A program made the translations under genes and the position numbers. Of a stretch of 64,000 nt of DNA, positions 1 through 53,032 are shown piece by piece. The notes beneath the pieces are model-generated. The model was not told the DNA's origin. It saw only the letters and a program-made list of their open reading frames with translations, and did no database searches. The DNA lies in the NCBI GenBank assembly GCA_018820315.1, contig JAHJOQ010000092.1:6591-70590 (forward strand). Direction: 5' to 3'. Source of the stretch: Candidatus Zixiibacteriota bacterium (GTDB lineage: Bacteria; Zixibacteria; MSB-5A5; JAABVY01; JAHJOQ01). Position 1 is the stretch's first letter. Each line of letters starts with the position of its first letter.

Positions 1-1857
1 GCCACTGGACTCCATGACTTGTCAATCATTGCTACCGATGAACTCGGTGCCTCTGCTGCATGCCATTTTGAAGTATTCGTGAATTCCACTGCTCCATATT
101 TCATCGGCTGCGGGGGCGACAGCTCAGCCGTAACGTCCGTGATAGGTGAGACCGTGCGCGGCTCACTACTGGCTTCGGACCCTGACAATTGTCCCGAGCC
201 TCTTTCTTATTCACTGATTTCGTTTGGAGGTCCCGGTCTGTTTGAGGTAGACTCGGCGACTGGAGAATGGTCCTGGCGCACACACTCTACCGATGATTTC
301 CTTGGTGATTTTGATGTAACGGTCGGTGTAACAGATGGCTTCAATTCGGAGACGTGCACGTTTACAATCACTGTGCTTCCGACTTTCGATATTTGGATCG
401 GCACAGACTTGATGCATCCTCAGGGGCAATACACCATAGTCCCGATCTATGTGTCAAATGAGTCCGACTACCTCGCTGGTTTTGATTTCCTCATTACATA
501 TGATGGCAAAATACTTAATTTCATAGATGCCGAAATTGGCGAAGGTTTGGGATCTGACGGATGCGGCTGGGAGTATTTCACGTACAGGTACGTAAGCCAA
601 TCTGAATGCGACGGCTGGTGTCCGGTTCATATGCTAAGATTCGTCGCTATGGCCGAAGCTGACTTGCAGCCTCCGTACCCTCTCTGCTACGGTGGCGATT
701 CGCTCGAACTTGTGAACATGAGATTTCTTGTCTCGGGCAGTGCCGACTTTCACTGCAAGTACACGCCCGTGAGCTTCTACTGGAACGACTGCGGTGACAA
801 TGGTGTGTCCAGTGTATCGGGTGATACGCTCTGGATCTCATCGAGTGTATACGTCTTTGACGCGACCGCCACGCCGACGTACATTGAAGTTACGGGAGCT
901 AAGGGCTATGGGGGACACAGCGGGATTCCAGACGTAGATTGCCTTGCGGGGAGTATCCATGGAGGTAGACCTGTGGAAGGCATAATCTACAGGGGTGGAG
1001 GTTTGAAAACGGAGTGCGTGGCTGATGTGGTCCTGTATGGCGATCTGAATCTCAATCGCGTTCCGAATGAGATCTCTGATCTTGTGCTGTATCTGAACTA
1101 CTTCATATTTGGCTTGCCGGTATTTGTCATCAACCCGGAAATTCAGATCGCAACTTCCGATGTTAATCAGGACGGTCGTGTCCTGACCTCCGGCGACGTT
1201 GTCTATATGGTCAGGATTATCGTGGGGGATATAACAGCACCATTGAAGCCGGATCAGGGTGGTGGAGAGATGTACATCGAGTGCCGTCCCCGCGATGAGA
1301 TTGTGGCTATCTGTGTGCGATCTGACGTCGATGTTGGTGCCTTGTTTCTGGAGTTCGATGTTGGCAGCAATGACGCGTCCCCTGTGCTGCTGGCGGACCA
1401 GATGGAAATGAAGTGGAATCTCGACAAGGGTAAACTCCGCGTTATGATCTACTCGATGTCGACTGCGCGGATTCCGGCCGGTGAAAGAGAATTGCTGCTG
1501 ATTGAAAGAGCCAAGACGCCGACAATCATGCAGGTTTCTGCCTCAGACTACTACGGCAATACAATTCAGACCGAGCTGGGCGCCTATGCCCGCGAGGAAA
1601 GCCTCAGGTTGATCGCAAATCGACCCAATCCGTTCAATCCCACTACAGAGATTTGCTTTTATACTCCCGCGTCGGCAGAGTGGTCGGTAGAGATATTCAA
1701 CATCATTGGACAGAAAGTCGACGAGCTTCGTGGCACTTGCGGAACTGGCCTGAATTTCGTATTATGGGATGCGGGCAGTCACCCATCGGGAGTCTATCTA
1801 TACAGGGTGGTGGTTGGAGAACAGTCAGCTAGTGGTAAGATGGTCCTAATGAAATGA
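1..1857 (+). CDS. 5-prime-partial secreted multidomain protein with two cohesin-like modules, an internal dockerin-like segment and a C-terminal Por/T9SS sorting domain
   Basis: The reading frame is open from nt 1 (the track uses an internal TTG at 19). Cohesin-like modules around aa 125-185 (YTIVPIYVSNESDYLAGFDFLITYDGKILNF) and aa 420-470 (GALFLEFDVGSNDASPVLLADQME...LRVMIYS). Dockerin-like segment LYGDLNLNRVPNEISDLVLYLNYFIFG...SDVNQDGRVLTSGDVVYMVRIIVG. The last ~80 aa (NPFNPTTEICFYTP...GVYLYRVVVGEQSASGKMVLMK) match the T9SS C-terminal-domain pattern. Confidence 0.55.
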   Translation, partial: ATGLHDLSIIATDELGASAACHFEVFVNSTAPYFIGCGGDSSAVTSVIGETVRGSLLASDPDNCPEPLSYSLISFGGPGLFEVDSATGEWSWRTHSTDDFLGDFDVTVGVTDGFNSETCTFTITVLPTFDIWIGTDLMHPQGQYTIVPIYVSNESDYLAGFDFLITYDGKILNFIDAEIGEGLGSDGCGWEYFTYRYVSQSECDGWCPVHMLRFVAMAEADLQPPYPLCYGGDSLELVNMRFLVSGSADFHCKYTPVSFYWNDCGDNGVSSVSGDTLWISSSVYVFDATATPTYIEVTGAKGYGGHSGIPDVDCLAGSIHGGRPVEGIIYRGGGLKTECVADVVLYGDLNLNRVPNEISDLVLYLNYFIFGLPVFVINPEIQIATSDVNQDGRVLTSGDVVYMVRIIVGDITAPLKPDQGGGEMYIECRPRDEIVAICVRSDVDVGALFLEFDVGSNDASPVLLADQMEMKWNLDKGKLRVMIYSMSTARIPAGERELLLIERAKTPTIMQVSASDYYGNTIQTELGAYAREESLRLIANRPNPFNPTTEICFYTPASAEWSVEIFNIIGQKVDELRGTCGTGLNFVLWDAGSHPSGVYLYRVVVGEQSASGKMVLMK

Positions 1858-4600: not shown

Positions 4601-7600
4601 ATGAGAAAGAAATTATGTCTGTTAGCGGCCTGTCTGCTTATCGTCGCACTCTTCTGGGTGATAGCGATGGCTGCAGGCCCGAATCAGACTGCCACCGTTG
4701 TTTCGGGCTCGCAAACGGTTCAGATGGGGGAGGATATAAGCCGTGCGGCATGTACGATGACCCACAGCAGTCTGACGATCGGAGCATATTTCGGTGGCTT
4801 TGCACCCGGTATGCTCAATGTCAGCTATTTCAATCCAGCTGACTTTTGTGCTGCACCATATCCGTTTGAGATCACTGCTTTTTCGTTCCCCCTGTATGAT
4901 CCGGGCGGATTCGTTTGGCCGGTTTCTCTTGACGTCGTTGTTTTTGATGCCCCCGATTCGTGCGCAGGGCCGGGAGTCGAGCTCTGTCGGTTCACGGTTG
5001 TCTGTGATCAGGCGACATTTCAGTTCCCGAATGTGGGTGTGGCAGCATTCCCGGCGCCGTGCTGTGTGAATGGGCCATTCTTCATTGGTATCGAGTACAC
5101 GAATGGCGCGGTGGGATCAATTCCTTCGATATGCTATGATGACACCTCTCCACCAGAGGTCTGCATCAACTGGTTCTTCTATTCCGATGGTGCTTGGTAC
5201 GAGTGGTACGATATCTGGACGCCGCCAACACCCGGGTATCCGATGTTCTGGGTTGACGGTGAAACTGAGTCAGCAAACTGCGACCAGGGGCCGTGCGACT
5301 GGAATCCCGGCGATGAATACAAGATGCACTTCCCGCAGCCTCCAGATGAAGCTGGATGGGATGTGAATGCCACGTTCCCAGCTGTCATGGCCGATGACTT
5401 CGAATGTATCGAATCCGGATACATAAAAGACATCCACTTCTGGGGATCGTGGAAATTCGGCGCTACCGGTATAATCGATTCATTTGGTCTGTCACTCCAT
5501 TCCAACATAACTGAGCAAGAAAACCCAGACGGCTACAGCATGCCGGGCGACCTGCTCTGGTCATATGTAGCCACACTGTGGACTGAAGAGCCCATAATGG
5601 GCCAGTACATGGAAGGCTGGCTCGATCCGGTGACCGGTGAAGTTCTGCCTGACAATCATCAGGAGTACTTCCAGTACAATATTTGTCTCGATGAACCATA
5701 CTGGTTCTGGCAGGATGCCGGTACGATCTACTGGCTGGACATCACAGCGTACCTGGCAGACGGTTCTGCGGAGACCTGGGGATGGAAGACGTCTCTCGAA
5801 CATTTCATGGATGATGCCGTTTATATGGGCGGGGGTACATGCACTGCTCCCGATAACGGCACAGGGACAGTTGATCTGCCTGCGGACTGTCCATATGTTG
5901 ATGTTGATAGTCCCTTGATGATCATGGATGGACTTCCACCGGGCACTTCGATCATCTGTGATCCAACACTCGATGAGTACTATAATAAGCAAGAATATCC
6001 GGGTGGATCTCTCGGTGGTGATATTCACGAATTCGACGCTATGCTGACCCTTGAAATGACTGGTACAGGCGACCTTGCTGGATTTGTGAGACATATTTCG
6101 ATGGATGTCCATGTCGAAATTCACACCGGCCCCCGAAATCCGGGTGATCCTGTTCAGGCATTCGCGGCTGAACTCTGGTCGCTCTCCGGTCAAATAGTGG
6201 GCGATCCGGATTTCGACTATCTGGCAATCCAGGCTGGGTCAGCCTACGGCCTTCCGAGTCCCGGCCAGTTTGAGATCACCGATATTGGAGGCGGGCTTTA
6301 CCATATCGACAGCTTCTTCGATATCACATATCAGATTGACTTTGATGGAGCTCCCGGCTCGGTTCTGGATGCCATGTCTGGTTCTACAGTGGGCACGAGT
6401 CGCTGGATACAGGGTGGTGGCTCTGGTTGGAATGAGCTGCGCGAGCCTGTGTTTGAACAGAATTGGCTCGGCAATGCCTTCTGGGGAGAAATGTACCCGA
6501 CCGGTGAATTCATCGGCGGAGGCGAAAACGCATTTGGTGAAGGCTGGTTCTATTATCCAATGTATGATTGGTGGAACATCTGGTTCTACGACCATCCATA
6601 CGATCCGACCCGCTATAAAGAGGTTCACTTTGATGTCGAGTTTATTGAGACAATGCCGGGCGGGTTTGTGGAGTTTGCCTTGAATTGGTCGACTGATCAG
6701 TGGTCAATTGACCAACCGATAGGAGATAGCGCTCCGCCTCTTCCGGGCGTTGACGAGGACCTCTACATCGGCAGAGCCATCCTTTATGCCGGTCCGATTC
6801 CTCCTGGACCTATGCCGCTTGATTTTGTGATACCGGAATACAATCCGGAGTGGGTCTCAGTCGATGTCAGAGGCATAGGTTTCATGATTCCTCAGGGTAT
6901 CATATCTCACAGCTGCTCTGGATACAGTCTAAGTGGCGAGTCGCTTGACCTTGCCTTTGTGATTACTGGCGGACCGGAAGAACCGGTACCATATGATACA
7001 GTCGTGTGCGAGCCTCAGGGTGATCCGAATCCAACACATCCGGACACATACTGGTATGATGTTACTCCGACCATCTTTGGACGTTGCGACTTCCACGTGA
7101 TGGTGTTTGACAGTGTGCTGAGTCACTACAGCAACTTTGTCGAGCCTGTCAATTGGACCCACCAGTTACACAAGGTTGGTAACGATTGGTGGATGTCGTT
7201 CTGCAATCCGGGATGTACCGACGCCATATTCGCTACATTCAGATTCTCGTTCGACAATCCGTATGCCAGTGTCTGGGGTCATTGGAGAACTACGGCAGAT
7301 CCGGCGGGTCTCTGCGATCCATATGTCGGCGTAGTCGATTCGTCTGAGAATCACACTGCCGATATGGATGGCTATGGCTATAGAGTGCATGTGCCGTACT
7401 TCGAAGCTCCCGACGTCGATACCTGTACGTATTACAAGGAGCCTTTCGAGGACTATGCACCGTTTGGCATGCCTGACTTTGATCAGAAGCAGGCTGGTTG
7501 GTTGAGCCCATTCACGGGAGGCTGGAGCTATTGTGGTCCTGCTGCAGTTGCAAACTGCTTCTGGTGGTTTGATTCGAAGTTCGAAACAATTCCGATGGTA

Positions 7601-8548
7601 CCGCCTGCAATCAGCGATCATTACCCGCTAGTTTCGGCGTACGGTCCGTGGGACGATCACGATCCGAATAATGTGATACCGTTCATAAGTGCCTTGGGAA
7701 CAGCGCTGAATACCGATATGATGCCGCTCGGAGGAACAAACATCCATATGATGGCTTCCGGCGTTATCGATTGGCTGACCGCGATGGGACTCATTGCTAA
7801 TTATACGGTAACGCTGATGCCGGGTGATAATCCGATGATGTTCGAGTACATCATGGAAGAGGTGCTCATAAGCCAGGATGTCATTCTGCTACTCGGGTTC
7901 TGGGAGGATCTCGGTGCTCAGTGTAGCCGCATCGGCGGACACTATGTGACAGTTGCCGGTGTCTGCCCCGACGACTTCGGATTGTGTATCTCTGATCCAT
8001 ATTTTGATATGCATGAGGGTGAGCCACCCGCAGGTGCCGCGCACCCGGCTGGTGTACACAATGATGCGCAGTTCATTTCCGGGCCGCACGGTACAATCTT
8101 CCACGACAAGTACCTTGTGGGACCGGTCATGTGGCCGTGTCAGCCACCGTTTACGACAGAAGTGTATGGCTATCCGAATAACCCGATAGACATAATCAAC
8201 TTCGAATGGCTGAACGATGGTGACATCCCATCCGCAGGGTATCAGGGCGGTCCGATATTCACGCTTATCGAATATGCTCTGGTGATATGCCCGGTTGACT
8301 GTGATGCGTTGATTGGCGAAGCCGACAACAGCGGCGCGATTGACATCGACGATGTTGTCTACCTGATCGCATACATCTTCTCAGGTGGACCCGCTCCTGC
8401 GCCGTACTCAGTCGCATCGGGAGATGCCGATTGCTCCTGCGCGGTCGACATCGATGATGTAGTTTATCTGATTGCATACATATTCTCGGGTGGTCCAGCA
8501 CCTTGTACATGCGAGGAATGGGTAGCCGCCTGCGGAGCACTGCATTAG
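4601..8548 (+). CDS. giant secreted protein (1315 aa) with two C-terminal dockerin repeats; N-terminal 1200 aa of unknown function
   Basis: GGGAGG Shine-Dalgarno 8 nt before ATG 4601; the track start at 4574 is further upstream. Signal peptide MRKKLCLLAACLLIVALFWVIAMAA. Composition extremely rich in W/Y/F/P/G/D/C. C-terminus carries two IDIDDVVYLIAYIFSGGPAP repeats with flanking Cys. Confidence 0.7.
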   Translation: MRKKLCLLAACLLIVALFWVIAMAAGPNQTATVVSGSQTVQMGEDISRAACTMTHSSLTIGAYFGGFAPGMLNVSYFNPADFCAAPYPFEITAFSFPLYDPGGFVWPVSLDVVVFDAPDSCAGPGVELCRFTVVCDQATFQFPNVGVAAFPAPCCVNGPFFIGIEYTNGAVGSIPSICYDDTSPPEVCINWFFYSDGAWYEWYDIWTPPTPGYPMFWVDGETESANCDQGPCDWNPGDEYKMHFPQPPDEAGWDVNATFPAVMADDFECIESGYIKDIHFWGSWKFGATGIIDSFGLSLHSNITEQENPDGYSMPGDLLWSYVATLWTEEPIMGQYMEGWLDPVTGEVLPDNHQEYFQYNICLDEPYWFWQDAGTIYWLDITAYLADGSAETWGWKTSLEHFMDDAVYMGGGTCTAPDNGTGTVDLPADCPYVDVDSPLMIMDGLPPGTSIICDPTLDEYYNKQEYPGGSLGGDIHEFDAMLTLEMTGTGDLAGFVRHISMDVHVEIHTGPRNPGDPVQAFAAELWSLSGQIVGDPDFDYLAIQAGSAYGLPSPGQFEITDIGGGLYHIDSFFDITYQIDFDGAPGSVLDAMSGSTVGTSRWIQGGGSGWNELREPVFEQNWLGNAFWGEMYPTGEFIGGGENAFGEGWFYYPMYDWWNIWFYDHPYDPTRYKEVHFDVEFIETMPGGFVEFALNWSTDQWSIDQPIGDSAPPLPGVDEDLYIGRAILYAGPIPPGPMPLDFVIPEYNPEWVSVDVRGIGFMIPQGIISHSCSGYSLSGESLDLAFVITGGPEEPVPYDTVVCEPQGDPNPTHPDTYWYDVTPTIFGRCDFHVMVFDSVLSHYSNFVEPVNWTHQLHKVGNDWWMSFCNPGCTDAIFATFRFSFDNPYASVWGHWRTTADPAGLCDPYVGVVDSSENHTADMDGYGYRVHVPYFEAPDVDTCTYYKEPFEDYAPFGMPDFDQKQAGWLSPFTGGWSYCGPAAVANCFWWFDSKFETIPMVPPAISDHYPLVSAYGPWDDHDPNNVIPFISALGTALNTDMMPLGGTNIHMMASGVIDWLTAMGLIANYTVTLMPGDNPMMFEYIMEEVLISQDVILLLGFWEDLGAQCSRIGGHYVTVAGVCPDDFGLCISDPYFDMHEGEPPAGAAHPAGVHNDAQFISGPHGTIFHDKYLVGPVMWPCQPPFTTEVYGYPNNPIDIINFEWLNDGDIPSAGYQGGPIFTLIEYALVICPVDCDALIGEADNSGAIDIDDVVYLIAYIFSGGPAPAPYSVASGDADCSCAVDIDDVVYLIAYIFSGGPAPCTCEEWVAACGALH

Positions 8549-35288: not shown

Positions 35289-35459
35289 ATTAGACTATAG
35301 CACTCCATGCTTCTAGTTCGATATTCCGCAGTTGTATCAGCCCCGTAGATGCATCTCTGCGCTCAAAGTGTCTGTCTGACGACCGAACCGATAATAGCGT
35401 TATATAAATCCTATGTCAAGAGCTTTTATGACCCAACATAGGGCATTCCAGGCCTTCCG

Positions 35460-39786: not shown

Positions 39787-39810
39787 GCTGACAACACCGT
39801 GCGCATTTGG

Positions 39811-40677: not shown

Positions 40678-41116
40678 CGTCTACTTCTGCAATTTCGTAC
40701 GTTCCGGGTACGAGGGCTTCGATCAGTTTCATCATTCCGACGCCGACAGTCTTCAATGTCTTCTTCGAAAACTCACCGGAAAATGTGAACCCGATTCCGT
40801 CTTTTATCACAAAGACATATTTGTGGATAGCTTGTACTCCGCCGGATGGTGTCCACCTATAGACGAATTCGTGCGCCTGATTGCCTCGATCGAGAGTGAT
40901 AGCTTCATCTTTGAGAACATCAACTCCTTGAAGAGTCGATTTTATCGGATCGATCCACTCCTTCGCGAAGTCGGCAACATCGAGATGTTGAAGCTGTCTG
41001 TTCAGCACAAGTGTCACCTGATGTGCAGTCTCGCCGTCGCTCGGTCCTCGAAAATGATAAACGGTTTGATCTTCCCAGCCACGGGGAATGTCCAGCTTGA
41101 AAATAGTCTCACTCAT
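40670..41116 (-). CDS. hypothetical small cytoplasmic protein (148 aa); adaptor/chaperone or immunity candidate
   Basis: Co-oriented, 8-nt overlap with the downstream gene. Compact alpha/beta-like composition. No signal peptide. Confidence 0.4.
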   Translation of the reverse strand: MSETIFKLDIPRGWEDQTVYHFRGPSDGETAHQVTLVLNRQLQHLDVADFAKEWIDPIKSTLQGVDVLKDEAITLDRGNQAHEFVYRWTPSGGVQAIHKYVFVIKDGIGFTFSGEFSKKTLKTVGVGMMKLIEALVPGTYEIAEVDDA

Positions 41117-41118
41117 AG

Positions 41119-42027: not shown

Positions 42028-43733
42028 GGATTCCTGTAAAAACTGGCTGACGACGCATGCCTCCGCGCATTATGACATTCATTGTCAGTTCGATCCGCTG
42101 GATTGTCTCTAATACTGATATCTGCGCCCTTATTCCGATTACCGTACCCGACGTTATGGCACCATCGATCACCCGCTCGCGACTGAAAAGGCCAGAGACC
42201 GTACATAAGTCTCTTGAGTGACCAGAAATCGGTCTTCTTGTGTGCAGAGTCGGGATCATCCTCTGAATGCGCAAGCGACGGATTTCTGAATCCATTTGCG
42301 AGCGCCATAGCATGGCCAAGTTCATGGGCGAGTGTCCTACCGATTTCGACCGCAGTCGAATTGAAGGCTCCACCCGTGCTGGCAAGGGCAATCCCCACGA
42401 GAGGCCAATTTCGATATCGCTTTGTCGAGTAGGTGATTCCGAATGCACCCTCTATATTTCGCACTACATACAGATTCAGTTTATTATCCTCAGTGGCGTG
42501 TCCCTCGGAGTCATTCGTCGTCATGATCGTGCGATATTCGGCATTTACCGATCCCCACGTTATGATGCCGGATCGCGACAGTGTCACAGCTTTTTCACGC
42601 CAGGCTGCAGTTCTGAATCTGACTCCGATTGGCCAGAGAATTTCGTTCGCAACGGCGATAGCATCATTGATCAGTGCCTGATTCCCGACTGGCGCCATTG
42701 CGCCGGTGTAATGAACACCACCCGTATCGTGGTCGGAGCCGTTTATTGTCAACCAATAGGGGCGAATAGTCTTGACTATCAGGGGAAGCACAACCACCTG
42801 AAGCGAAGCAATTTCTATTCGCTCCCGACCGCGCTTGAATTTGATCTTGACCGATGTGCTTCTCGGAACCGCTCCGCTGGGAGTCTTGGTCCGAAGCTGA
42901 AGTATGATTTCCCTGCCTGTCGGCAAAGGGTCGGGTGACACTACTTCCACGAGGGCAGTGTCCTCACTTTCCGCCATCAGTGACGTATTGCTTGCGAGGC
43001 ACTCTCTGGTCAGCTTGAGACGAAACGGCGTCTCGCGTGCCATCGTCACAACTGGCCCCTCCAAGTCAATATTGGCACATTTAGTTTCTATGAATCCTCT
43101 GACATCCGGTTCGGGAGCTCTGCCCCAGGGGCGTCCGGATGTAACCGTTGCATCAGTGTTCGACGGTGCCCTTTCGAATCGAACCAGCGAACGACGAATA
43201 ATGAAGACGTCATCAGTCGTATTGTCATCATCGGTAACCGAGTTCAATCTGGTTCGTGTTGTATTCCTGGCAATGCCGTCTGTTCTCAATCCGGTATCAG
43301 CCTGAAATCTCAGAATGGCTTCTTCCGATGCCTTGCCGAAGGTGCCGTCGACTTTGCCCGTGTAGTAACCGAGAAGCTGCAGTCTGCGTTGTATACCGGC
43401 CTGCATGGTGCCGTGCCCCACGCCTGAGTTTGCATTGCAATCGCCGAGAGTATCCCAGGCTGCCAGACAGATATCTTCGCCTGGGGCAGGTTCATTGATC
43501 TCACCATGTAGCTGCTTGACGACATAAGTTGTGCCGAGGACCGTCAATCGAGCGGTTCCGCCTTGGGCGATGCGCAGACCATAGTAGCCGTTGCCTTGCG
43601 GCCTGACCGGCGTATCCGAACCTTCAAGTGTGGCATCGCCACCATTGATAATGCTGTCGGCGTCGACGCCGGGTACTTTCTGAAAGCTTAGCAGCACATC
43701 AGCGGTCGTTGCCTCAACTTCCTGGTGACACAT
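42024..43733 (-). CDS. T6SS effector candidate: peptidoglycan-binding domain (PG_binding_1) + C-terminal HExxH zinc metallopeptidase domain, no signal peptide
   Basis: IQRRLQLLGYYTGKVDGTFGKASEEAILRFQADTGLRTDGI matches the PG-binding repeat. RTLAHELGHAMAL is a zincin HExxH site. Located immediately downstream of the PAAR gene. Confidence 0.62.
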   Translation of the reverse strand: MCHQEVEATTADVLLSFQKVPGVDADSIINGGDATLEGSDTPVRPQGNGYYGLRIAQGGTARLTVLGTTYVVKQLHGEINEPAPGEDICLAAWDTLGDCNANSGVGHGTMQAGIQRRLQLLGYYTGKVDGTFGKASEEAILRFQADTGLRTDGIARNTTRTRLNSVTDDDNTTDDVFIIRRSLVRFERAPSNTDATVTSGRPWGRAPEPDVRGFIETKCANIDLEGPVVTMARETPFRLKLTRECLASNTSLMAESEDTALVEVVSPDPLPTGREIILQLRTKTPSGAVPRSTSVKIKFKRGRERIEIASLQVVVLPLIVKTIRPYWLTINGSDHDTGGVHYTGAMAPVGNQALINDAIAVANEILWPIGVRFRTAAWREKAVTLSRSGIITWGSVNAEYRTIMTTNDSEGHATEDNKLNLYVVRNIEGAFGITYSTKRYRNWPLVGIALASTGGAFNSTAVEIGRTLAHELGHAMALANGFRNPSLAHSEDDPDSAHKKTDFWSLKRLMYGLWPFQSRAGDRWCHNVGYGNRNKGADISIRDNPADRTDNECHNARRHASSASFYRNP

Positions 43734-43740
43734 GAATCAG

Positions 43741-44916
43741 TTACCTCGGGAGTCTTCTCGCTCCTGACAAGTTGGGGAATTCGACTCGACTCTGTTCGGG
43801 CGGGATGTTCGCTTCAATTGCCTCGCCGTTACTGTCAAGAGTCCCTCTGCGGACCTCGCCGTTTGCGAAACGCACCACATAGGCCTCGGATGCGATCGGA
43901 TTTCCATTTTCGTCTTTCAGCACTATCTTGAGGCTGTCGCTGATCTGGAGCATGCCTGAACGGGCCCGGCAGCTTCCGACATCAACGATGAAGTAGAATC
44001 GCGGAAAGGCGTAGCTCTGCGTGCGAGATCTGCCGAGAGTCGGATCACCCGTCCTACCTCTGTAACGAAATGTCCACTCGGCCTCGACGTTGTCGCCGCT
44101 CGATTCAGCTTCGACCGCATCCACAAGCTCATCCGCAGCAGATGCATTCTTCTTGAATATCTGGAACACGGCCGCTGTACCCGATTCGAAGCCCGATATC
44201 CCAGCCTGCAGGGTGACCGCCTCACCGACTCTGGCCGTAGTGGCTGACCATGTGGCGCTGGTTACGGCTCTGACCGAGACTTCATAGCTGCCTTCCTGCA
44301 CGCCGCTCTGTCTGATTCTGCCTGCAAGTGCGCCTTCGGTTGTCTCGCCATCGGGGGATGTCACAGAATATCTGGCTCCCGTGATTGGTCGCCCTCCACC
44401 ATCAACGAAATTAACATCGAGATAATGCTGCTCTTCTACCTCCGCCTCGTCGGAGGTGCCCTCGCTCTGCCCGCCGCCTGCCTGGCCGCCTCCACCGCCG
44501 CCGCCCCCGCCGCCATTGCCGATCAAAACATTTGGGCTGCCGATTATTATCTTCGCCTTGTTTGTCGGAGGTTTCTGAAATGCTGTGCCTGGAGGTGTAG
44601 GGATATGTGGGGGAGTATTCGATGCCTGGCTGTCGACAGTTGCCGCTGGCAAGCCCTCGATTTTGACCGACGAGCTCAGTCCGCTGTCGAGCATTCCCAT
44701 GAATGGATGTGGCAGGGGAGTAGGTACTGGACCGCCGGGGGTCGGTACCATGACGATATGAACGTCGACACCGACGACTTGATCATTCTGCTTGGCAGCA
44801 GGCATATTGTTGATCAGAACTGTCACCGCTGTACCGATTACCGTACCGACCGGCATGTCAGTCGGATCGTTGCAGGTCATCGCCGTGTCGCCCATTCTTG
44901 CGGCAGGTTTTCCCAT
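43741..44916 (-). CDS. PAAR-domain spike-tip protein with Gly-rich linker and about 220-aa C-terminal extension
   Basis: MGKPAARMGDTAMTC...VIGTAVTVLINNMPAAKQNDQV contains literal PAAR motifs. Poly-Gly linker GGGGGGGGGGGQAGGG. Start taken at internal ATG 44916; the track uses TTG 44943. Confidence 0.72.
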   Translation of the reverse strand: MGKPAARMGDTAMTCNDPTDMPVGTVIGTAVTVLINNMPAAKQNDQVVGVDVHIVMVPTPGGPVPTPLPHPFMGMLDSGLSSSVKIEGLPAATVDSQASNTPPHIPTPPGTAFQKPPTNKAKIIIGSPNVLIGNGGGGGGGGGGQAGGGQSEGTSDEAEVEEQHYLDVNFVDGGGRPITGARYSVTSPDGETTEGALAGRIRQSGVQEGSYEVSVRAVTSATWSATTARVGEAVTLQAGISGFESGTAAVFQIFKKNASAADELVDAVEAESSGDNVEAEWTFRYRGRTGDPTLGRSRTQSYAFPRFYFIVDVGSCRARSGMLQISDSLKIVLKDENGNPIASEAYVVRFANGEVRRGTLDSNGEAIEANIPPEQSRVEFPNLSGARRLPR

Positions 44917-45029
44917 GGTTCCCCGGAGTTGTCTCTCGTTCAATCAACGGCAGAAAAGTTAAGAATGTTTGCGGCAGGAGTCAACAAATAGTTGTCAGGG
45001 GTGTTTCACCATTTGTGCTCAGATTCGAC

Positions 45030-45339: not shown

Positions 45340-45409
45340 ATCGCAAGTGGGATAATATACTCGACTAAAGTAGATCGCAATAATCCTGTATATGAGAGGA
45401 GCTTCAAAT

Positions 45410-47530
45410 ATGGTCTCCAGCAACTTCGCACCAGCAACCCCGCCAAAGAGACGTGAACTCCAAAATCTCAGCATCATCTCTTGTATCCTATTTTGCATTC
45501 TTACAGTCACAATAACTCCGGTGGCCAACGCCGAACGCGCGGCACCATCTGAAATGCAGCAAGTCTGCCAAAACTGGATTACGGAAATAACGTATTCCCA
45601 TGGCTCGTGGGCAGGGGGGACAGCTCCATCGATTAGCTCCGTCGATGACATTCTGATGAATGACACGCTGCTTGCGCATGTGTACGCCATAGAGCCGTCA
45701 GGCTATGTCATAGTGCCTGTTCTCAAAGAGTTGCCACCTGTAAAAGCCTACTCTACAGTGTCGAGCTTCAATCCGAAAGACGCCGATGGATTCGCTGCGA
45801 TGATTCGCGAGGTGCTGGAGCATCATGCGCGGCTATTCGTGAATACCTACGGCAGCCTTGATGTGTCGCAATCCGGAATGGACACGGAATTATTCGGTGA
45901 AGCAAATGGGGCGGAGTGGACGCGTCTGAACGTGGATACCGATATATTCGCATCGAGCCTGGAGAGCTCCAGCCGAGCTCCGATGGAAACCCTTGGTCCG
46001 TTGGTGACCACGAGTTGGCATCAGGGGAGCCCATACAACTTGTTCTGTCCCGATGGTGACGGTGGCAGATGCATAGTAGGCTGTGTGGCGACAGCATCAG
46101 CGCAGATTCTCGCTTACTGGCAGTGGCCCTCATCTGGTTCCGGAAGCTCGAGCTACTACTGGAGCGGCGACAATTCTTGCGGCGGCAGCACACCCGGTCA
46201 CACTCTGGGGGTCGACTACTCTGATCTCTATGACTGGAACAATGTTGTTGATGTCTGCGGTAGTAGCTGCACGCAGGCGCAGAAAGAGGCCGTCGCTGAG
46301 ATTTGCTATGAAGTCGGCGTTGCATTCGAGATGGATTATGGCAAATGCGCCTCAGGAGCTTACACTGCCGATGCTCAGATGGTTTTTCCGACATACTTCA
46401 GATTTGACTCAGGTGTTTCCCGTCAGAATCGCTCTTCCCATACACCCAGTTCCTGGTTTGCGCTGATTGGCGAAGAGATTTCCGCGGGAAGGCCGATACA
46501 ATACAGAATCAACACTCATTCGATCGTCTGCGACGGCTGGCAAACGGTCGGCGAAACGAAGCAGTACCACATGAATTATGGATGGGCCGATAGCCATACA
46601 GCATGGTACTCGATCGACAACCTCTACTGCAATTGGAGCGGGTGCGATCCGATGGTCGAATACGCTATTATCGGCATTCAGCCGGAGCCCGACTCAGACA
46701 GCGACGGCTTGCTCAATTCCGATGACAATTGCCCGACTGAATATAACCCTGATCAGACGGATACTGACGGCGACGGACTCGGCGATGTCTGCGATAACTG
46801 CATGAACGACCCGAATCCTTCACAGGGAGATGTGGATGGCGACGGCATGGGCAACGTCTGCGATCCCGATGCCGACGATGACGGCATTCTCAACGAGGCC
46901 GACAACTGCGATCTCGTAATCAATCCGGCTCAGCAGGATGGCGACGGCGACGATGTCGGCGACGCATGCGATAATTGCCTTGAAGTTCAAAACCCATATC
47001 AGTACGACGAGAATTTCGACGGTGTCGGTGACGCCTGCGATGGCGAGATGCATATTCAGAGTTACATCCTGCCGGACGGCTATCTGGGTCAGCCTTATTC
47101 ATATCAATTCTGGGCGGTTGGTGGAGTGGAACCTTATACGTGGACCAAGGTTTCCGGCCAGCCTCCTTATGGTACCATATTCCAGGCTGGTGAAATCGGC
47201 ACGATCACCGGCACTCCATCGTGGCCGGGGGAGAGCTACTTACAGGTGGCGATGCAGGATTCTGATACTCCGCCAAACTACGATACCGTAGCGATCAGTA
47301 TATCTATTTACGAACTGCAGTTTCTCTGTGGCGACGCCGACAATAACTTAGCTGTCGACATTGACGATGTCGTCCATCTCGTGTCATATGTCTTCTCAGG
47401 AGGTTCGTCTCCCGATCCTGTTGAGATTGCGGATGTCGACTGTAGCGATGGTGTCGACATTGACGACATAGTGTATCTTGTAGAGTACATATTCTCTGGC
47501 GGCGCGGAGCCTTGCGCAGGCTGTCCATAG
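45410..47530 (+). CDS. secreted peptidase C10 (streptopain family) with thrombospondin type-3 Ca-binding repeats and C-terminal dockerin pair
   Basis: [12 protein letters not shown]...[17 protein letters not shown] (catalytic Cys block), HSIVCDGW (His block) and YHMNYGWAD align block-for-block with SpeB. DxDxDG TSP3 repeats ([29 protein letters not shown]...). Terminal [16 protein letters not shown] / [22 protein letters not shown] precedes ATG 45410; the track start is 45392. Confidence 0.82.
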
Positions 47531-47607
47531 TCTCCCTGCCCTGCGAAGGCCTGCAAATGTGACTATTGATCGGGCGGCTCATTTCAATGAGACCGGAGGA
47601 ATACAAC

Positions 47608-49245
47608 ATGATCAAGTCGAGAGTTGTGACTCTGTTTTTCCTGACTCAGTTTATTGAAATCATTCTTCTGTCGAGTGGGCTCTATGCTCAGCAGAGCACG
47701 TCCGGACCCGAACCATTGCCGGGAACCGACCCGGGACTGCGACCTCCGACGCGATCGCAAGTTGTTATAACAGGTGTACCAGCCTATATATGGCATCATG
47801 GCTGCGGACCTACGGCTGTCGGAATGGTAGTCGGTTTCTGGGATGGCAATGGTTTCTCTGATCTTGTAGAGGGGGACGCGAGCACGATGACGTCGGATGT
47901 GCGGGCAATGATTGCCGACGACAGCGATTATCCCGGTTGTGGTCAAAGTTGGTACGATCACTATCAGGATTACTCATGTCCGATAGATAATGGATCGAAC
48001 ATCGTTCCGGATCGATCCGAATCTGGTGGTGCACATGTGGACAATTGTGTGGCTGACTTCATGCACACGTCAATGAGTAGCTACTGGAACGCATATGGAT
48101 GGAGCTGGTTTGGCGATGATAATCTCGGTTTCGTTGAATATGTCGACCTGGTGCTGCCGGAGGCAAACCCTTATGCGCAATCGGACATGTATGAAGATTT
48201 AACCTTCGATGATTACAAAGAGGAAATCGATAGCAGGCGACCTGTTGTTCTGCTGGTCGACACTGACGGGGACGGCGGAACCGATCACTTCGTGACTGGA
48301 ATCGGATATGACGAAGGCACCTTGAACTACTATGGCATATACGACACATGGGATTATCAGGTCCACTGGTATCGATGGCGACCACTTGCACCCGGCAACT
48401 CCTGGGGGATTTTCGGACTGACGACCTTTGGACTCGATGTCATTTGTGTCGACAGTGATAGCGATGGTTTCGGCGATCCGGGCTATCCTGATAACACGTG
48501 CCCGGAAGACAATTGTCCTTCTGATTTTAATTTTGATCAGGCAGATACAGATAGCGACGGGCTGGGTGATGTATGCGACCCAGACATTGATGATGACTCA
48601 GTCCCCAACGAAGAGGACAACTGTCCCTACACTGTGAATCCGTCTCAGCTCGACGATGACGGTGATGCAATCGGCAACATCTGTGACAATTGTCCCGACA
48701 CGTATAATCCGGAGCAATATGACGAGAATTCCGACGGAACGGGCGACGCATGCGATGGGGATCTTCACATTCAAAGCTACGAACTTCCGGACTGCACAGT
48801 CAATGAGCCTTATTTCTACCAGTTTTGGGCGGTAGGAGGAGTGGAGCCTTACTACTGGCAAAAAATAGGTGGCCAGCCGCCATATGGTTGTGTGTTCACC
48901 GGTGGTCAGGTAGGTACTATCACTGGCACGCCGACATGGGTTGGTGACTACTACCTGATCATTGCGCTGGCTGACTCAGATTCGCCCCCGAACTCTGATA
49001 CGATCGCGGTGTCAGTCTCGGTTATCGAACCTCCTAGGCCGTGCGGCGATGTTACCGGCGAAGGTGGCGTCGATATAGATGACGTTGTTTATCTTATCGC
49101 CTATATTTTCCTGGGTGGTTCAGCCCCCGATCCGCTGGAAATAGGAGATGTAGATTGCAGCGGGCAGATTGACATTGATGATGTTGTTTATATGATAGCT
49201 TACATATTTACTGGTGGACCGGCGCCGTGCGCCGACTGCGAATGA
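47608..49245 (+). CDS. secreted papain-like cysteine peptidase-domain protein (C10/C39-like) with TSP3 repeats and C-terminal dockerin pair; paralog of the upstream gene
   Basis: GGAGGA RBS before ATG 47608. Signal peptide. HHGCGPTAVGM Cys block and HFVTGIGYD His block. TSP3 repeats and terminal region co-linear with 45410..47530. Confidence 0.45.
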   Translation: MIKSRVVTLFFLTQFIEIILLSSGLYAQQSTSGPEPLPGTDPGLRPPTRSQVVITGVPAYIWHHGCGPTAVGMVVGFWDGNGFSDLVEGDASTMTSDVRAMIADDSDYPGCGQSWYDHYQDYSCPIDNGSNIVPDRSESGGAHVDNCVADFMHTSMSSYWNAYGWSWFGDDNLGFVEYVDLVLPEANPYAQSDMYEDLTFDDYKEEIDSRRPVVLLVDTDGDGGTDHFVTGIGYDEGTLNYYGIYDTWDYQVHWYRWRPLAPGNSWGIFGLTTFGLDVICVDSDSDGFGDPGYPDNTCPEDNCPSDFNFDQADTDSDGLGDVCDPDIDDDSVPNEEDNCPYTVNPSQLDDDGDAIGNICDNCPDTYNPEQYDENSDGTGDACDGDLHIQSYELPDCTVNEPYFYQFWAVGGVEPYYWQKIGGQPPYGCVFTGGQVGTITGTPTWVGDYYLIIALADSDSPPNSDTIAVSVSVIEPPRPCGDVTGEGGVDIDDVVYLIAYIFLGGSAPDPLEIGDVDCSGQIDIDDVVYMIAYIFTGGPAPCADCE

Positions 49246-50102
49246 GGGACGAAGTTAAGCAGATTATCATCATCTCGGATGGTACCGGTAAAACGGCCAA
49301 GAGGCTGATGGACGCAGTCCTCTCCCAGTACTCCGGTCACGAAGGGGAATTCCGGCTTGGAAAGATATACAGCTCGGCCAGAACAAGAGAGCAGCTCGAC
49401 AATATCCTCGATGAGATTCCTGATGGGTGCCTTGTCATTTTCTCGATTATCTCCTCCGATGTCTGGACTTACCTGCATGACCGCCTTCACGATGAACAGA
49501 TATTGCACATTAATATTCTCGAACCTATGCTCAGCACAATGGAGAAGTTTCTCGGCCTCCATCCCGAGTACAAACCGGGACTGCTTCATATCATAGATGA
49601 CAGCTACTACAACAAGATTGATGCAATCGGGTATACTGTCGAACACGATGACGGTCTTGGGCACCAGCTCGGTGAAGCCGATCTGGTTATCATCGGACCA
49701 TCGAGAACCTGCAAAACACCTATTAGCATGTACCTGGCATGCAATGAGGGACTGAAGGTCGCCAACATTCCGATTTTCCCCAACGATCAAATGAAGAGCA
49801 GGTTGCTCAAGAGGCTCGAAGAGATAGAGAGTTGCAGGATTTTCGGCGTTACCATGAATCCTGATGTTCTCGTATTTGTGAGAGAAGACAGGGCGGAGTT
49901 TTTTGGCGGCAGCGAGGCAGGCAAGGCGGCGCTTGATGTCTACCGGGACACATCGTATGTGCGGCAGGAGATCACATATCTGAGGAATCTCTGCAGCAGT
50001 CAAGGTTGGCAGGTCGTCGATGTAACGCGAAGAGCGATAGAGGAAATCTCCAACGAAATCATGCACAGGTTGAAGGCTGATTGCGGGTCGTCCCGTCGCT
50101 GA
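49242..50102 (+). CDS. pyruvate, phosphate dikinase / PEP synthetase regulatory protein (PSRP, kinase/pyrophosphorylase, DUF299)
   Basis: IIIISDGTGKTA N-terminal motif and P-loop-like IIGPSRTCKTP. About 286 aa. ATGA overlap with the upstream stop. Confidence 0.78.
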   Translation: MRDEVKQIIIISDGTGKTAKRLMDAVLSQYSGHEGEFRLGKIYSSARTREQLDNILDEIPDGCLVIFSIISSDVWTYLHDRLHDEQILHINILEPMLSTMEKFLGLHPEYKPGLLHIIDDSYYNKIDAIGYTVEHDDGLGHQLGEADLVIIGPSRTCKTPISMYLACNEGLKVANIPIFPNDQMKSRLLKRLEEIESCRIFGVTMNPDVLVFVREDRAEFFGGSEAGKAALDVYRDTSYVRQEITYLRNLCSSQGWQVVDVTRRAIEEISNEIMHRLKADCGSSRR

Positions 50103-50356
50103 AATGAGGATGAGGACAACGGTCCCCACCTGCACATTCTCATTGACTGCAACTCTGGAGTCGCTATATTAAGAATGGTACTGCATCCCGTCATTACTTC
50201 ATTGGCGGAGCACATCGATATAGCAGCATTTTCGAATAATCGGAGGTAAGTGCATCAAGAGTACGATACCTTCCACCGGCTCACATCAAAAGGCTCTCAT
50301 ACATACATTTCCGGCCGACACAAGCATTGTAACACAATCTGGAAGAGAGGCAGTCC

Positions 50357-53032
50357 ATGAAACCAACCGATGCCAGAATTAGCTTCATCTCTGCAGCAGT
50401 GCTGACACTTATGTTGCTCTGCGCCGGTACAAGCGTGCTTCAATCGGGCGAACTGTCCGGAGCGAGATCCGCCTCGGCCGATCCGATCTGGATCTACGAC
50501 TCTGATCTCACTGTAACTCACGTCGAAACCGCCGATCTTAACGCTGACAATATCAAAGATGTTATCGCCAGTGAGTACAGTTCCGATTACTACGGAACGC
50601 CCTCACGGGTGCTCGCCATTGATGGCGCTACCGGCGATACGATTTGGTCGTATTTGATTCAGGATGGTATCCGATCGATGACAATCGGTGATCTCAATAA
50701 TGACGGCGTCGCGGATGTTGTGTTGGGCGCCTCCTACAACGCGACCGGTACACCCGATGGACAGATTCATGCGCTCGATGGCAAGGATGGTGCAGTGATC
50801 TTCACCTGTCCTATCGGCGCAACAATCGAAGATGTTGTGATCGGCAATTTTACCGGCGATGAGAATATGGATGTGGTCGCCGCCAGCTTTGATGATTATG
50901 TCTACGCTGTCGATGGAGAAAGCGGCGCCCTGCTCTGGAGCAACGAAATTGGCAGCATGTTTGTCAATGCGGTCGCCGCCGCAGATGTCAACAACGATAA
51001 CATCGATGATGTAGCTTATGCTCATGAGTACTTAGCGGGATACGACAATTATTACGGCATGCTTGATGGCACCGACGGTTCTGATATCTGGGCCGATACA
51101 GTGCCGTATGTCGTTGTAGATGTATTGCTCGCGGATGTCGACGGAGATTCGGACATCGAATTGATCGTAGGAGGAATCTACAGCGACGATCATGCTGAGC
51201 TGTTTGTGCGTGATGCTGCGAAAGGCGATCTCGAATGGTCATACAATCTCGGCAGTGTCGAGCATGTGAATGGAAATATTCTAATCGAAACTCATGATGT
51301 TGATCAGGACACTGACCTCGATATAGTCGTTGGTCTGTATCTTGGGCCGAGTCCCATGCTGGCATTCGACGGCTCCGGACCGACTGCCATGTGGGTAGCT
51401 GATCCTATTGGAGTGAACACTCGCGATATGACTTTTGGCGATTTCACGGGTGACTACAATCTCGAAATCGCCGTCGCAGGTGGCGACAGGGTGGTGGTGC
51501 TGAAGGCTGATGGTGGTGAGGAGCTTTACTATTATGCTGTCGGAGGATCGATGTACAGTGTCGCAACAGGCGATTTCGATGACGACGGCGTGACGGACAT
51601 CGCAGCCGGGGGCGGTGCTGATTTCACCGGCACTCCGCCCAACCCTCTGAAATCAGTCTGGGCACTCAAGACAGTCGTCTCCACGGTTAAATGGGAATTC
51701 GATTTCGGCAGCTACGGAAATGCGATAGCGATGGGTGATCTAAATGGCGACGGTTGCGACGATGTCGTAGGTGTCTGCTCGAGCACCCGGGAGGCATGGG
51801 CTATCGACGGCGACAAAGGGACCGAACTTTGGCATTGGCAGGCGTCTGATAACTTGTTCTGCGTCACAATTGATGACTTTGACGGCAATGGTCTCGGTGA
51901 TGTCGCTGTCGGCGGCTACGACAATATTGTCACAGCACTCAACGGAGAGACAGGGTTGGTGCTGTGGCAGTTTGTGGACGCGACCGATGATTACTACCGC
52001 AAATGCCTGAAATCCGCAGACTTGAATGGCGACGGCAACTTCGATGTGATCGCCGGTAATGAAGATAACTTCATCTATGCGATAAATGGCGAAAGCGGAG
52101 GATCGCTCTGGTCCTACGATTGCGGATCGGATGCCACGGACGTGATAGTTATGCAAATGAATGGCACAGGACCGCTGGATGTGATCGCAACAGTGGGCAG
52201 TGGGAAAGTAGTCGTTGTCGACGGTTCCGATGGCTCGGAGCTTTGGACGTTTGATGGTCCCGCCGGATTAGAGCACCTTGCCGATCACAACATGCTCGAT
52301 TTTCCAGCGGAATCATTCTTCGATGTCTTCTGTGCTGTGACACCATCTGGCACAAAAGGCGTCATAAAGGTGAACTCAGAGAGTCACGATCAGGATTGGT
52401 TTACGCCTCTCGCTATCGGCTCCAACACGCACGGTATGTGGTGCGATGATGTCAATGACGACGGAGTTGCAGACGTGGCAGTAAACGGTGGGACAACAGC
52501 GAGCTACGTGACACTTCTCGATGGAGTCACCGGAGAGATTCTCTGGGACTTCCCGACGGGAGGAGAAGTCAATACGGTCGTAATCTACGATGTTAATCTC
52601 GACGGACTAAATGAAGTAATCGCCGGATCCGACGATCAGAATGTCTACGCACTGAACGGTCAAACAGGCGAGCTCATCTGGAATTATAGCACGGCAGATG
52701 ACGTGATTCATGTCCTGGTCGGCGATGTCGACTGTGACGGCAGACCGAATATTGCATGTGTGACGTTCGGCAGTGATGGGGTCATCTATGCCTTCGAATC
52801 GCTTGCCCCCATCGGTCCGTCATATGTCTGCGGCGATGCTGACGGCAGCGAAGCGGTAGATATCGACGACGTCGTATTTCTGATAACATATATATTCGCA
52901 AGCGGACCAGCGCCCGATCCACTCGATTCTGGAGAAGTCGACTGCACTGGAGCTATTGATATCGATGATGTAGTTTACTTGATAGCGTACATATTTGCGA
53001 GCGGCCCCGCGCCGTGCGCGAATTGCCTGTAG
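50357..53032 (+). CDS. secreted FG-GAP/VCBS-repeat beta-propeller protein with C-terminal dockerin pair
   Basis: Signal peptide. More than 12 repeats of the DxNxDGxxD(V/I) type (DLNNDGVADVVLGA, DVNNDNIDDVAY, DLNGDGCDDVVG...). Terminal DIDDVVFLITYIFASGPAP / DIDDVVYLIAYIFASGPAPC. Confidence 0.6.
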   Translation: MKPTDARISFISAAVLTLMLLCAGTSVLQSGELSGARSASADPIWIYDSDLTVTHVETADLNADNIKDVIASEYSSDYYGTPSRVLAIDGATGDTIWSYLIQDGIRSMTIGDLNNDGVADVVLGASYNATGTPDGQIHALDGKDGAVIFTCPIGATIEDVVIGNFTGDENMDVVAASFDDYVYAVDGESGALLWSNEIGSMFVNAVAAADVNNDNIDDVAYAHEYLAGYDNYYGMLDGTDGSDIWADTVPYVVVDVLLADVDGDSDIELIVGGIYSDDHAELFVRDAAKGDLEWSYNLGSVEHVNGNILIETHDVDQDTDLDIVVGLYLGPSPMLAFDGSGPTAMWVADPIGVNTRDMTFGDFTGDYNLEIAVAGGDRVVVLKADGGEELYYYAVGGSMYSVATGDFDDDGVTDIAAGGGADFTGTPPNPLKSVWALKTVVSTVKWEFDFGSYGNAIAMGDLNGDGCDDVVGVCSSTREAWAIDGDKGTELWHWQASDNLFCVTIDDFDGNGLGDVAVGGYDNIVTALNGETGLVLWQFVDATDDYYRKCLKSADLNGDGNFDVIAGNEDNFIYAINGESGGSLWSYDCGSDATDVIVMQMNGTGPLDVIATVGSGKVVVVDGSDGSELWTFDGPAGLEHLADHNMLDFPAESFFDVFCAVTPSGTKGVIKVNSESHDQDWFTPLAIGSNTHGMWCDDVNDDGVADVAVNGGTTASYVTLLDGVTGEILWDFPTGGEVNTVVIYDVNLDGLNEVIAGSDDQNVYALNGQTGELIWNYSTADDVIHVLVGDVDCDGRPNIACVTFGSDGVIYAFESLAPIGPSYVCGDADGSEAVDIDDVVFLITYIFASGPAPDPLDSGEVDCTGAIDIDDVVYLIAYIFASGPAPCANCL

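Follow-up and report, generated by a model that had tools for sequence, protein, structure and literature searches.

A four-cysteine, type-I-like dockerin module at the C-termini of secreted proteins in Candidatus Zixiibacteriota

Why should secreted proteins of different kinds, encoded in one stretch of bacterial DNA, end in the same short cysteine-bracketed module, and what might this module bind? The question was raised by a stretch of 64,000 nucleotides from a Candidatus Zixiibacteriota bacterium (positions 6,591 to 70,590 of contig JAHJOQ010000092.1, assembly GCA_018820315.1), the whole of which is called the window here. The open reading frame (ORF) listing revealed that four plus-strand genes, ending at 8548, 47530, 49245 and 53032, had a common C-terminal module of about 70 residues with two near-identical repeats. 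A six-frame regular-expression scan with the repeat core (V/I)D(I)DD(V/I)V.L(I/V).Y(I/V)F found exactly eight copies in the window, two per gene and all at the extreme C-termini, and no copy outside these four C-termini in the 64 kb, which confirmed the original prediction of the module for all four genes. Our analysis supported the identification of the module as a type-I-like dockerin, which probably docks secreted, mostly proteolytic cargo to divergent cohesins and carries a cysteine-stapled tail. The genes and their modules are listed below; the starts at 4601 and 47608 are the likely true ones for the genes ending at 8548 and 49245.

4601..8548, plus strand: secreted DUF7901 protein of 1315 residues with the long tail PCTCEEWVAACGALH (Pfam DUF7901, 1.5e-42); module at 8288-8548, repeat cores at 8339-8380 and 8444-8485.
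45392..47530, plus strand: secreted Peptidase_C10 (streptopain-like) protein with TSP3 repeats, a He_PIG-like immunoglobulin (Ig) domain and a C-terminal dockerin (Pfam Peptidase_C10, 5.5e-47; TSP_3, 3.7e-9).
47327..47530, plus strand, stop codon included: cysteine-bracketed dockerin module of gene 45392-47530, repeat cores at 47354-47395 and 47453-47494.
47608..49245, plus strand: secreted C39-like papain-fold peptidase with a cassette of TSP3, Ig and dockerin (Pfam Peptidase_C39_2, 5.5e-8; TSP_3, 1.5e-11); module at 49042-49245.
50357..53032, plus strand: secreted FG-GAP/PQQ-type beta-propeller protein (Pfam FG-GAP_3, 2.2e-23; PQQ_2, 9e-27); module at 52829-53032, repeat cores at 52856-52897 and 52955-52996.

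In gene 45392-47530, the Cys646 codon began at position 47327 and the stop codon ended at 47530; a hydrophobic N-terminal segment, read from the sequence without a prediction tool, suggested a signal peptide. Alignment of the four window modules revealed a mean column identity of 68% and 28 invariant positions, the four cysteines among them. Each module consisted of two tandem repeats of about 22 residues, and each repeat of a 12-residue EF-hand-like loop followed by a helix, so that the earlier name “double-dockerin” was a misnomer for one dockerin made of two repeats. The overall pattern first written for the module held, except that the spacer after “DC” was three residues instead of four and that after the second “GG” three instead of two. 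The gene ending at 8548 carried the module but departed from the pattern at three places: CPVDCDALIGEAD stood in place of CGD, leaving no cysteine directly before loop 1; loop 2 had an extra cysteine; and the tail was longer (PCTCEEWVAACGALH). The four proteins had also been described as unrelated. This was correct for genes 50357-53032 and 4601-8548, in which the module was the sole shared part, but not for genes 45392-47530 and 47608-49245, which shared a paralogous C-terminal cassette of about 290 residues (TSP3, He_PIG Ig and dockerin) with 48% identity (E = 8e-97).

What the module is was indicated by its loops, its predicted fold and its relatives. In all eight 12-residue loops, oxygen-bearing side chains occupied positions 1 (D/E), 3 (D/T), 5 (S/N/T/E), 9 (D) and 12 (D); both loops of each module thus appeared intact, in agreement with the prediction of calcium-binding loops as in type I dockerins, and the module would be expected to bind Ca2+ through them. 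The AlphaFold2 model built from a 124-sequence alignment (predicted local distance difference test, pLDDT, 93.3; predicted template modelling score, pTM, 0.82) contained helices at residues 18-30, 38-41 (short) and 51-63, the first and the last of which were each preceded by a loop. When the model was compared with the PDB by Foldseek, the best 32 matches were all dockerins, such as 8X39, 4UYQ_B, 5LXV_B, 2VN6_B and 1OHZ_B, with query-normalised template modelling (TM) scores of 0.48-0.80 (0.6-0.8 for most) and root mean square deviations of 1.5-3.5 Å (5.4 Å for the weakest match). The family profile of the module gave the same picture against PDB sequences, where dockerins made up 22 of the 23 matches (best E = 3e-4) and both repeats were spanned.

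The scan with dockerin hidden Markov models (HMMs), which had been proposed as a check, gave a divided result. The gathering threshold of Pfam Dockerin_1 (PF00404) is 22.9 bits. The module of gene 47608-49245 reached 23.1 bits when isolated and 16.6 bits within the whole protein, whereas the other three window modules stayed below the threshold (13.5 bits for gene 50357-53032) or had no match at all (genes 45392-47530 and 4601-8548). With the NCBIfam model NF041540, “GC-type dockerin domain-anchored protein”, isolated modules scored 21.8, 17.5 and 17.2 bits; none of the four passed its cut-off of 29 bits, and one had no match. Among the relatives, close ones with SISD for DIDD scored 43-61 bits on Dockerin_1, 21 of 52 surveyed tagged proteins passed this model at 1e-4, and some were named “dockerin type I domain-containing protein” by NCBI. 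Fold model, PDB profile, Dockerin_1 matches of relatives and NCBI annotation together supported the assignment of the module to type-I-like dockerins, as far as modelling and sequence comparison can indicate. Pfam matches to DncV-like_NTFase, TnpW and EF-hand were below threshold and covered about 20-30 residues, and were judged to be noise or generic EF-loop similarity. NCBIfam matches to MtsC fell on the TSP3 repeats and reached 112 bits against a cut-off of 350, and were set aside as well.

The position of the module at the very end of its proteins could also be explained if it were primarily a C-terminal sorting or secretion signal, read and perhaps cleaved by a dedicated machine, like the C-terminal domain (CTD) of the type IX secretion system (T9SS), PEP-CTERM or MYXO-CTERM. 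Among strict matches, 47 of 48 lay within 20 residues of the stop codon, and in most members of the family only 0-1 residues followed the last cysteine. Such an invariable location at the extreme C-terminus, the many unrelated secreted cargos that bear the module, and the need of diderms for an outer-membrane route for tagged proteins without a T9SS CTD would all suit a sorting signal. However, none of the four window modules matched the T9SS C-terminal sorting models (TIGR04183 and PF18962), and the predicted fold was helical instead of a beta-sandwich. Nor did the modules resemble the exosortase or rhombosortase signals (PEP-CTERM, MYXO-CTERM and GlyGly-CTERM): their tails ended in PCxxC(x) without a hydrophobic segment, and neither the transmembrane helix nor the basic tail of such signals was present. 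Moreover, relatives carried the module internally, ahead of a genuine T9SS CTD, and in tandem arrays. A sorting signal as the primary role is highly improbable on this evidence, and no match of the four modules to a different known sorting or anchoring signal of the T9SS, exosortase or rhombosortase type spoke against the dockerin assignment.

The repeats themselves appeared to be old. In the gene ending at 8548, the 19-residue string DIDDVVYLIAYIFSGGPAP was identical in both repeats, while 10 of its 19 codons differed synonymously and the nucleotide identity was 74%, which supported the earlier suggestion of an old duplication under purifying selection. The pairwise nucleotide identity among all eight repeats was only 48-80%, so a recent copy or an assembly artefact could be excluded. 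An artefact of assembly was further excluded because the same genes were present in three independent assemblies; the YebC protein (8699-9448) was identical in GCA_043823925.1, GCA_018830545.1 and one ENA metagenome contig, and the 1315-residue DUF7901 gene was also called in three other assemblies. Together with the thousands of family members, these data ruled out chance, low complexity and assembly artefact as sources of the pattern.

The four cysteines distinguished the module most clearly, and their conservation, noted in the four genes, extended through the family. In the alignment of 124 sequences, C1 was occupied in 111 of 123 homologues, C2 and C3 in 120 of 124 each and C4 in 114 of 116 (90-98%). 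C1 directly preceded the Gly-Asp that opens loop 1, C2 was position 4 of loop 2, C3 followed the second F-x-G-G-P-x-P turn, and C4 stood at the C-terminus or one residue from it. Three tail types recurred, PCxxC, PCDxDGDxxPDC and PCxCxxWxxxCG..., the last of which was the tail of the gene ending at 8548. This long tail, PCxCEEWxxxCGxxx (8486-8548 in the window), was also seen in relatives P0127, P0129, P0146, P0161, P0170, P0247 and P0267; it contained extra cysteines and was often accompanied by a second cysteine at loop-2 position 6.

To which partners would these cysteines be bound? In 349 non-redundant C-terminal modules, which are related sequences, the pattern CCCC was found 256 times, -CC- 36 times, C-C- 17 times and -CCC 11 times, the rest being rarer patterns. 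An even number of cysteines was present in 318 of the 349 (91%), where independent sites would give 65%. C4 was present in 258 of the 262 modules that had both C1 and C2, and in 26 of the 87 others. Given the relatedness of the modules, a Fisher p-value for this co-occurrence cannot be read as a real probability. Such parity would be expected from independent disulfide pairs and not from a single four-ligand metal site. Residues -1 to -3 before the first calcium loop of dockerins contact the C-terminal residues and stabilise the Ca2+-bound fold and cohesin binding (Slutzki et al. 2013, PMC3821032), and C1 occupied position -1 from the conserved Gly, that is, the known position of this clasp. 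Because of the parity rule and the location of C1, a covalent clasp (C1 to the tail) and a staple (C2 to the tail) were proposed; one disulfide would connect the residue before loop 1 with the C-terminus as a covalent version of the dockerin clasp, and the other would connect loop-2 position 4 with the cysteine after the GGPxP turn. We inferred this pairing from co-occurrence and from the topology of canonical dockerins. In a small subclass (P0135, P0140, P0143, P0155 and P0212), one cysteine followed each GGPxP turn, which hinted at a meeting point of the tails close to the pseudo-twofold axis that would allow C2 to pair with C3 and C1 with C4.

Alternatively, the four thiols could be reduced or could coordinate a metal, for instance Zn2+. 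In favour of this, the lineage is found mostly in anoxic sediments, a setting unfavourable to extracellular disulfides, the source metagenome-assembled genomes (MAGs) came from sediment and subsurface samples according to the record titles, and the C-terminal CxxC has the classical spacing of a metal knuckle. A fixed metal site would, however, not tolerate the variable spacing of the tails (CxxC, Cx8-9C and CxCx7C), and the common two-cysteine variants (-CC- and C-C-), together with the predominance of even counts, pointed to independent pairs. Metal binding or free thiols appeared very unlikely for these reasons. Two disulfides stapling the C-terminal tail are the most likely state of the four cysteines on the pattern of their occurrence, in keeping with the stabilisation that had been suggested for them.

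How widely is the module used, and by which organisms? A search of 1.84 billion cluster representatives with the module profile returned 40,003 at E <= 1e-3, 13,932 at E <= 1e-10 and 553 at E <= 1e-30, of which the weakest surely include ordinary dockerins. A pattern scan of species-representative genomes found at least 600 stretches, of which 577 were confirmed among the matches listed, mostly in Zixibacteria MAGs, and 15 of the best 79 loci came from one single MAG. Nearly all named homologues belonged to candidate division Zixibacteria (Candidatus Zixiibacteriota). MAGs titled “uncultured Ignavibacteria bacterium” (L007, L014, L020 and other CAZ*/CAY* loci) also carried many modules of the Zixibacteria type; either the taxonomy in these titles is loose or the module is present in Ignavibacteria as well. 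A Pfam survey of 52 tagged proteins found 61 families, with the peptidases C10, C1, C25, M14, S8, C39-like and InhA-like as leading cargo along with FG-GAP propellers, beta-helix, TSP3 repeats and He_PIG domains; glycoside hydrolases were absent from the 25 families met most often in this survey. To judge from these sequences, the module is a general C-terminal tag used in mass on secreted Zixibacteria proteins.

Other arrangements of the module were observed in the relatives P0121, P0125, P0127, P0130, P0141, P0164, P0171, P0221 and P0248, which had either tandem arrays or a T9SS sorting domain preceded by one to four dockerins. The arrays of P0121 and P0125 contained up to 9-12 matched stretches in single proteins, and P0130, P0141, P0164, P0171, P0221 and P0248 combined one or more dockerins with a T9SS CTD.

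If the module is a dockerin, is there a cohesin to receive it? The only candidate that had been named in the window was the ORF at 1-1857, cut by the 5' end of the window. Its features were as follows.

1..1857, plus strand: candidate anchoring protein, 713 residues in full (L001:1018-3159), with a TIGR04183 match of 31.0 bits (cut-off 23).
394..942, plus strand: divergent cohesin domain, identified with the family profile against the PDB, Pfam Cohesin on relatives and Foldseek.
1021..1230, plus strand: fifth dockerin-like module, internal, without cysteines and more divergent (phmmer against the PDB, type I dockerin 3ul4_B, E = 0.0014).
1609..1857, plus strand: T9SS C-terminal sorting domain of the 713-residue protein (TIGR04183, 31.0 bits, cut-off 23; Por_Secre_tail, 21 bits).

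The domains of the 713-residue protein were arranged in the order of a Big_9 Ig-like domain, the divergent cohesin, the cysteine-free dockerin, a beta domain and a T9SS type A sorting domain. The phmmer match of the internal dockerin to 3ul4_B spanned residues 438-507 of the full-length protein, and each of its loops apparently had one additional residue; with this cysteine-free, longer-looped form, the window holds two dockerin types. For the cohesin region, a single-sequence search found three homologues, and a later profile search, restricted to relatives sharing short exact words, found 32. A five-sequence profile gave weak matches in the PDB (E = 0.3-0.5). With the profile of 33 sequences, all 49 matches at E <= 1 were cohesins or dockerins, and the cohesins among them included 3KCP_A (1.4e-5), 3UL4_A (2.1e-4), 1G1K, 2VN5_A and the NagJ cohesins. 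Among the 33 family members, 21 matched Pfam Cohesin (best E = 5.5e-6) and 24 matched Dockerin_1 at E <= 0.01, and P0296 had a precomputed PF00963 match. A Foldseek search with the low-confidence AlphaFold2 model of the domain returned cohesins as all of the best 50 matches, with target-normalised TM scores of 0.23-0.58 (0.4-0.58 for most single-cohesin chains). Since both the 33-sequence profile and the matches of the family pointed to cohesins, the region 394-942 was taken as a divergent cohesin; its ORF was the only match to the cohesin-family HMM in the window, which bore out the earlier statement that no other candidate lay there. Regions of P0144 and P0150 looked like cohesins by eye but were not detected by local HMM searches and were not counted.

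Most of the 32 homologues were proteins of about 292 residues composed of a signal peptide, a cohesin and a cysteine-bracketed dockerin. In this family (P0275-P0300; L055:5290-6207), the cohesin had conserved cysteines of its own, in the motifs CGWEYFTY and DCGDN. It is possible that these proteins act as adaptors or as units that polymerise head-to-tail, the latter if their cohesin binds the dockerin type to which it is fused.

These elements can be combined into a mechanism. After export, the module would fold round two Ca2+ ions and plug into a divergent cohesin, carried either by the T9SS-anchored, putative surface protein encoded at 1-1857 or by the small secreted cohesin-dockerin adaptors. 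The near identity of the two repeats suggested that the binding surface is symmetric and works in two modes, like that of classical type I dockerins. The cargo would be kept in this way in a cell-associated, cellulosome-like and mainly proteolytic assembly. A further step is conceivable, in which the small proteins polymerise head-to-tail into a self-assembling extracellular lattice, held by T9SS-attached cohesin or dockerin proteins and displaying dozens of proteases as a diderm's proteolytic counterpart to the cellulosome, and in which the loop-2 cysteine or the terminal CxxC might lock the module covalently to the cohesin by disulfide exchange; we considered it quite unlikely.

Several observations weighed against the docking of the module to divergent cohesins through a cysteine-stapled dockerin. 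The window modules were at or below the Dockerin_1 cut-off, the sole one to reach it being the isolated module of gene 47608-49245. The window cohesin scored 14.8-16.9 bits on Pfam Cohesin (PF00963), under the threshold of 24.1, and its AlphaFold2 model, from a four-sequence alignment, was all-beta with pLDDT 49.4 and pTM 0.53. Only 32 cohesin proteins were found, by a search for short exact words, against thousands of dockerin clusters, and only one of the best 79 dockerin loci (L055) had such a cohesin within 6 kb; this scarcity of detectable cohesins implied that the family may not be the main partner. In the relatives bearing a T9SS CTD, the dockerin itself was the anchored part, and dockerin-tagged proteins lacked any recognised signal that would take them across a diderm's outer membrane. 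As for the staple, loop 2 and the N-terminus of a canonical dockerin, where C2 and C1 would be, sit near opposite ends, so that one tail stapling both must fold back to the middle of the molecule, and the two-cysteine variants were not wholly consistent with one pairing scheme.

Some of these observations would be accounted for if the module had the dockerin fold without a cohesin partner, serving folding or stability in a Ca2+-dependent manner, or binding some other ligand such as a polysaccharide, a component of the S-layer or outer membrane, or a further dockerin. The ratio of 32 cohesin proteins to the 13,932 dockerin clusters at E <= 1e-10, the absence of a Pfam-level cohesin from the ten dockerin or T9SS proteins scanned, the long tandem arrays of P0121 and P0125 and the T9SS-anchored dockerins of several relatives all fit such a role, which is likewise suspected for many non-cellulosomal dockerins. 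On the other side, a cohesin family exists in the same lineage and is fused to this very type of dockerin in the proteins of about 292 residues, and the window cohesin belongs to a run of genes on one strand (1-8548), the last of which bears a dockerin tag. The helix surface was also extremely conserved in both repeats across unrelated cargo, which favoured one shared protein partner. A dockerin fold that meets no cohesin is therefore unlikely in our judgement, and cohesin binding remained the preferred role of the module.

The genes around the modules were also surveyed. The run 1-8548 on the plus strand comprised four genes in a row: the cohesin/dockerin/T9SS protein, a 219-residue protein with no Pfam match on record, a T9SS-CTD protein (2595-4172; TIGR04183, 26.7 bits, cut-off 23) and the DUF7901 dockerin protein. 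It may be one operon linking anchor to cargo. The gene order was the same in three assemblies, which are themselves near-identical genomes. At L054, in a different MAG, a gene for a protein homologous to the 713-residue one in its C-terminal half (dockerin, beta domain and T9SS CTD) lay upstream of, and adjoined, another cysteine-dockerin gene. A type VI secretion cluster on the minus strand (28513-44943) was located directly upstream of the dockerin genes at 45392-53032 and was divergent from them; the next gene downstream of these (53692-55158, plus strand) encoded a secreted protein with SdrD_B and CBM96 and with neither a dockerin nor a T9SS CTD. Features of the type VI cluster were as follows.

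28513-30231, minus strand: VgrG (Pfam Phage_GPD and Phage_base_V).
30818-32245, minus strand: TssC (2.5e-69).
32734-33831, minus strand: ClpV-like part with AAA_2 and ClpB_D2-small (domain matches).
33831-35288, minus strand: ClpV-like part with Clp_N, AAA and AAA_lid_9 (domain matches).
43741-44943, minus strand: PAAR protein of the type VI cluster.

The ClpV-like ATPase (32734-35288) was apparently split in two adjacent ORFs that meet at 33831, which may reflect a truly split gene, a frameshift or an error in sequencing. The cluster also contained a 1060-residue LysM/BACON/metallophosphatase protein, a pentapeptide-repeat protein and a HEAT-repeat protein.

Modular assembly of proteins outside the cell is typically illustrated by dockerin-cohesin pairs, which are also in wide use in synthetic biology. 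Dockerins as such have been described before, also outside cellulosomes, some of the present proteins already carry this annotation, and the module reveals no new kind of system. Our literature search on Zixibacteria and dockerin, and on “GC-type dockerin”, found no description of it; the four-cysteine subtype with its parity rule, its massive use by Zixibacteria on protease-rich cargo and the family of small cohesin-dockerin proteins appear to be undescribed in the literature searched. In this uncultured sediment phylum, one putatively disulfide-stapled subtype of dockerin was expanded to tens of copies per genome, mostly on peptidases, which provides a testable model of how Zixibacteria organise extracellular protein degradation and would add a further diderm lineage to those with a proposed cellulosome-like assembly. 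Many of these tags escape routine annotation because they lie at or below the Pfam cut-off. For engineering, the module offers a compact docking unit that may be covalently stabilised.

Among known systems, the module was most similar to the type I dockerins of clostridial and ruminococcal cellulosomes (PF00404; 1OHZ, 2VN6, 4UYQ and 5LXV chain B), with which it shared two F-hand repeats of about 22 residues, 12-residue calcium loops and a three-helix fold with TM scores of 0.7-0.8 and root mean square deviations of 1.6-2.0 Å, as well as the C-terminal location on secreted enzymes, the near-symmetric repeats associated with a dual binding mode and a genome that also encodes cohesin proteins. 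In the profile alignment, the Ruminococcus flavefaciens dockerin 5LXV_B also had a cysteine at loop-2 position 4. The module differed from type I dockerins in that four cysteines were conserved, each helix was followed by an invariant F-x-G-G-x-x-P turn, and loop positions 10-11 were occupied by I-D instead of S-T or A-L; it occupied the very last residues of its proteins, its host was a diderm of the Fibrobacteres-Chlorobi-Bacteroidetes (FCB) group, and its cargo consisted mainly of peptidases and propellers rather than the glycoside hydrolases of cellulosomes. Scaffoldins of the adaptor type, such as ScaC of R. flavefaciens (PDB 5LXV chain A), combine one cohesin with one dockerin. The Zixibacteria proteins of about 292 residues resembled them in being small and secreted with a single cohesin and a dockerin, but differed in the divergence of the cohesin, which had insertions and the conserved cysteines of CGWEYFTY and DCGDN. 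The NCBIfam model NF041540 was matched weakly by the module over nearly its whole length (positions 1-61 of 67), at 17-22 bits and under the 29-bit cut-off.

As for the clasp of Slutzki et al. 2013 (PMC3821032), the module has C1 at position -1 and C3 and C4 in the C-terminal tail. The clasps described there are non-covalent and are produced by aromatic stacking, hydrophobic or electrostatic contacts, whereas that of the module would be a disulfide. A cellulosome-like system has also been proposed for Ca. Stygibacter (Cloacimonadota), in which signal-peptide-bearing S8 and gingipain-like C25 peptidases have C-terminal dockerins and a cohesin protein with a T9SS-type CTD is the proposed cell anchor of the complex (Williams et al. 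2021, PMC8542988). The dockerin and cohesin passages of that paper did not mention cysteines. Its scaffoldin has 3,755 residues with tandem cohesins and carbohydrate-binding modules, whereas the protein of the Zixibacteria window had a single divergent cohesin and a dockerin of its own, and Zixibacteria, a different phylum, possessed many small single-cohesin/dockerin proteins. With its tagged peptidases and T9SS cohesin protein in an uncultured FCB-related lineage, the Ca. Stygibacter system was the closest published parallel to the one proposed here.

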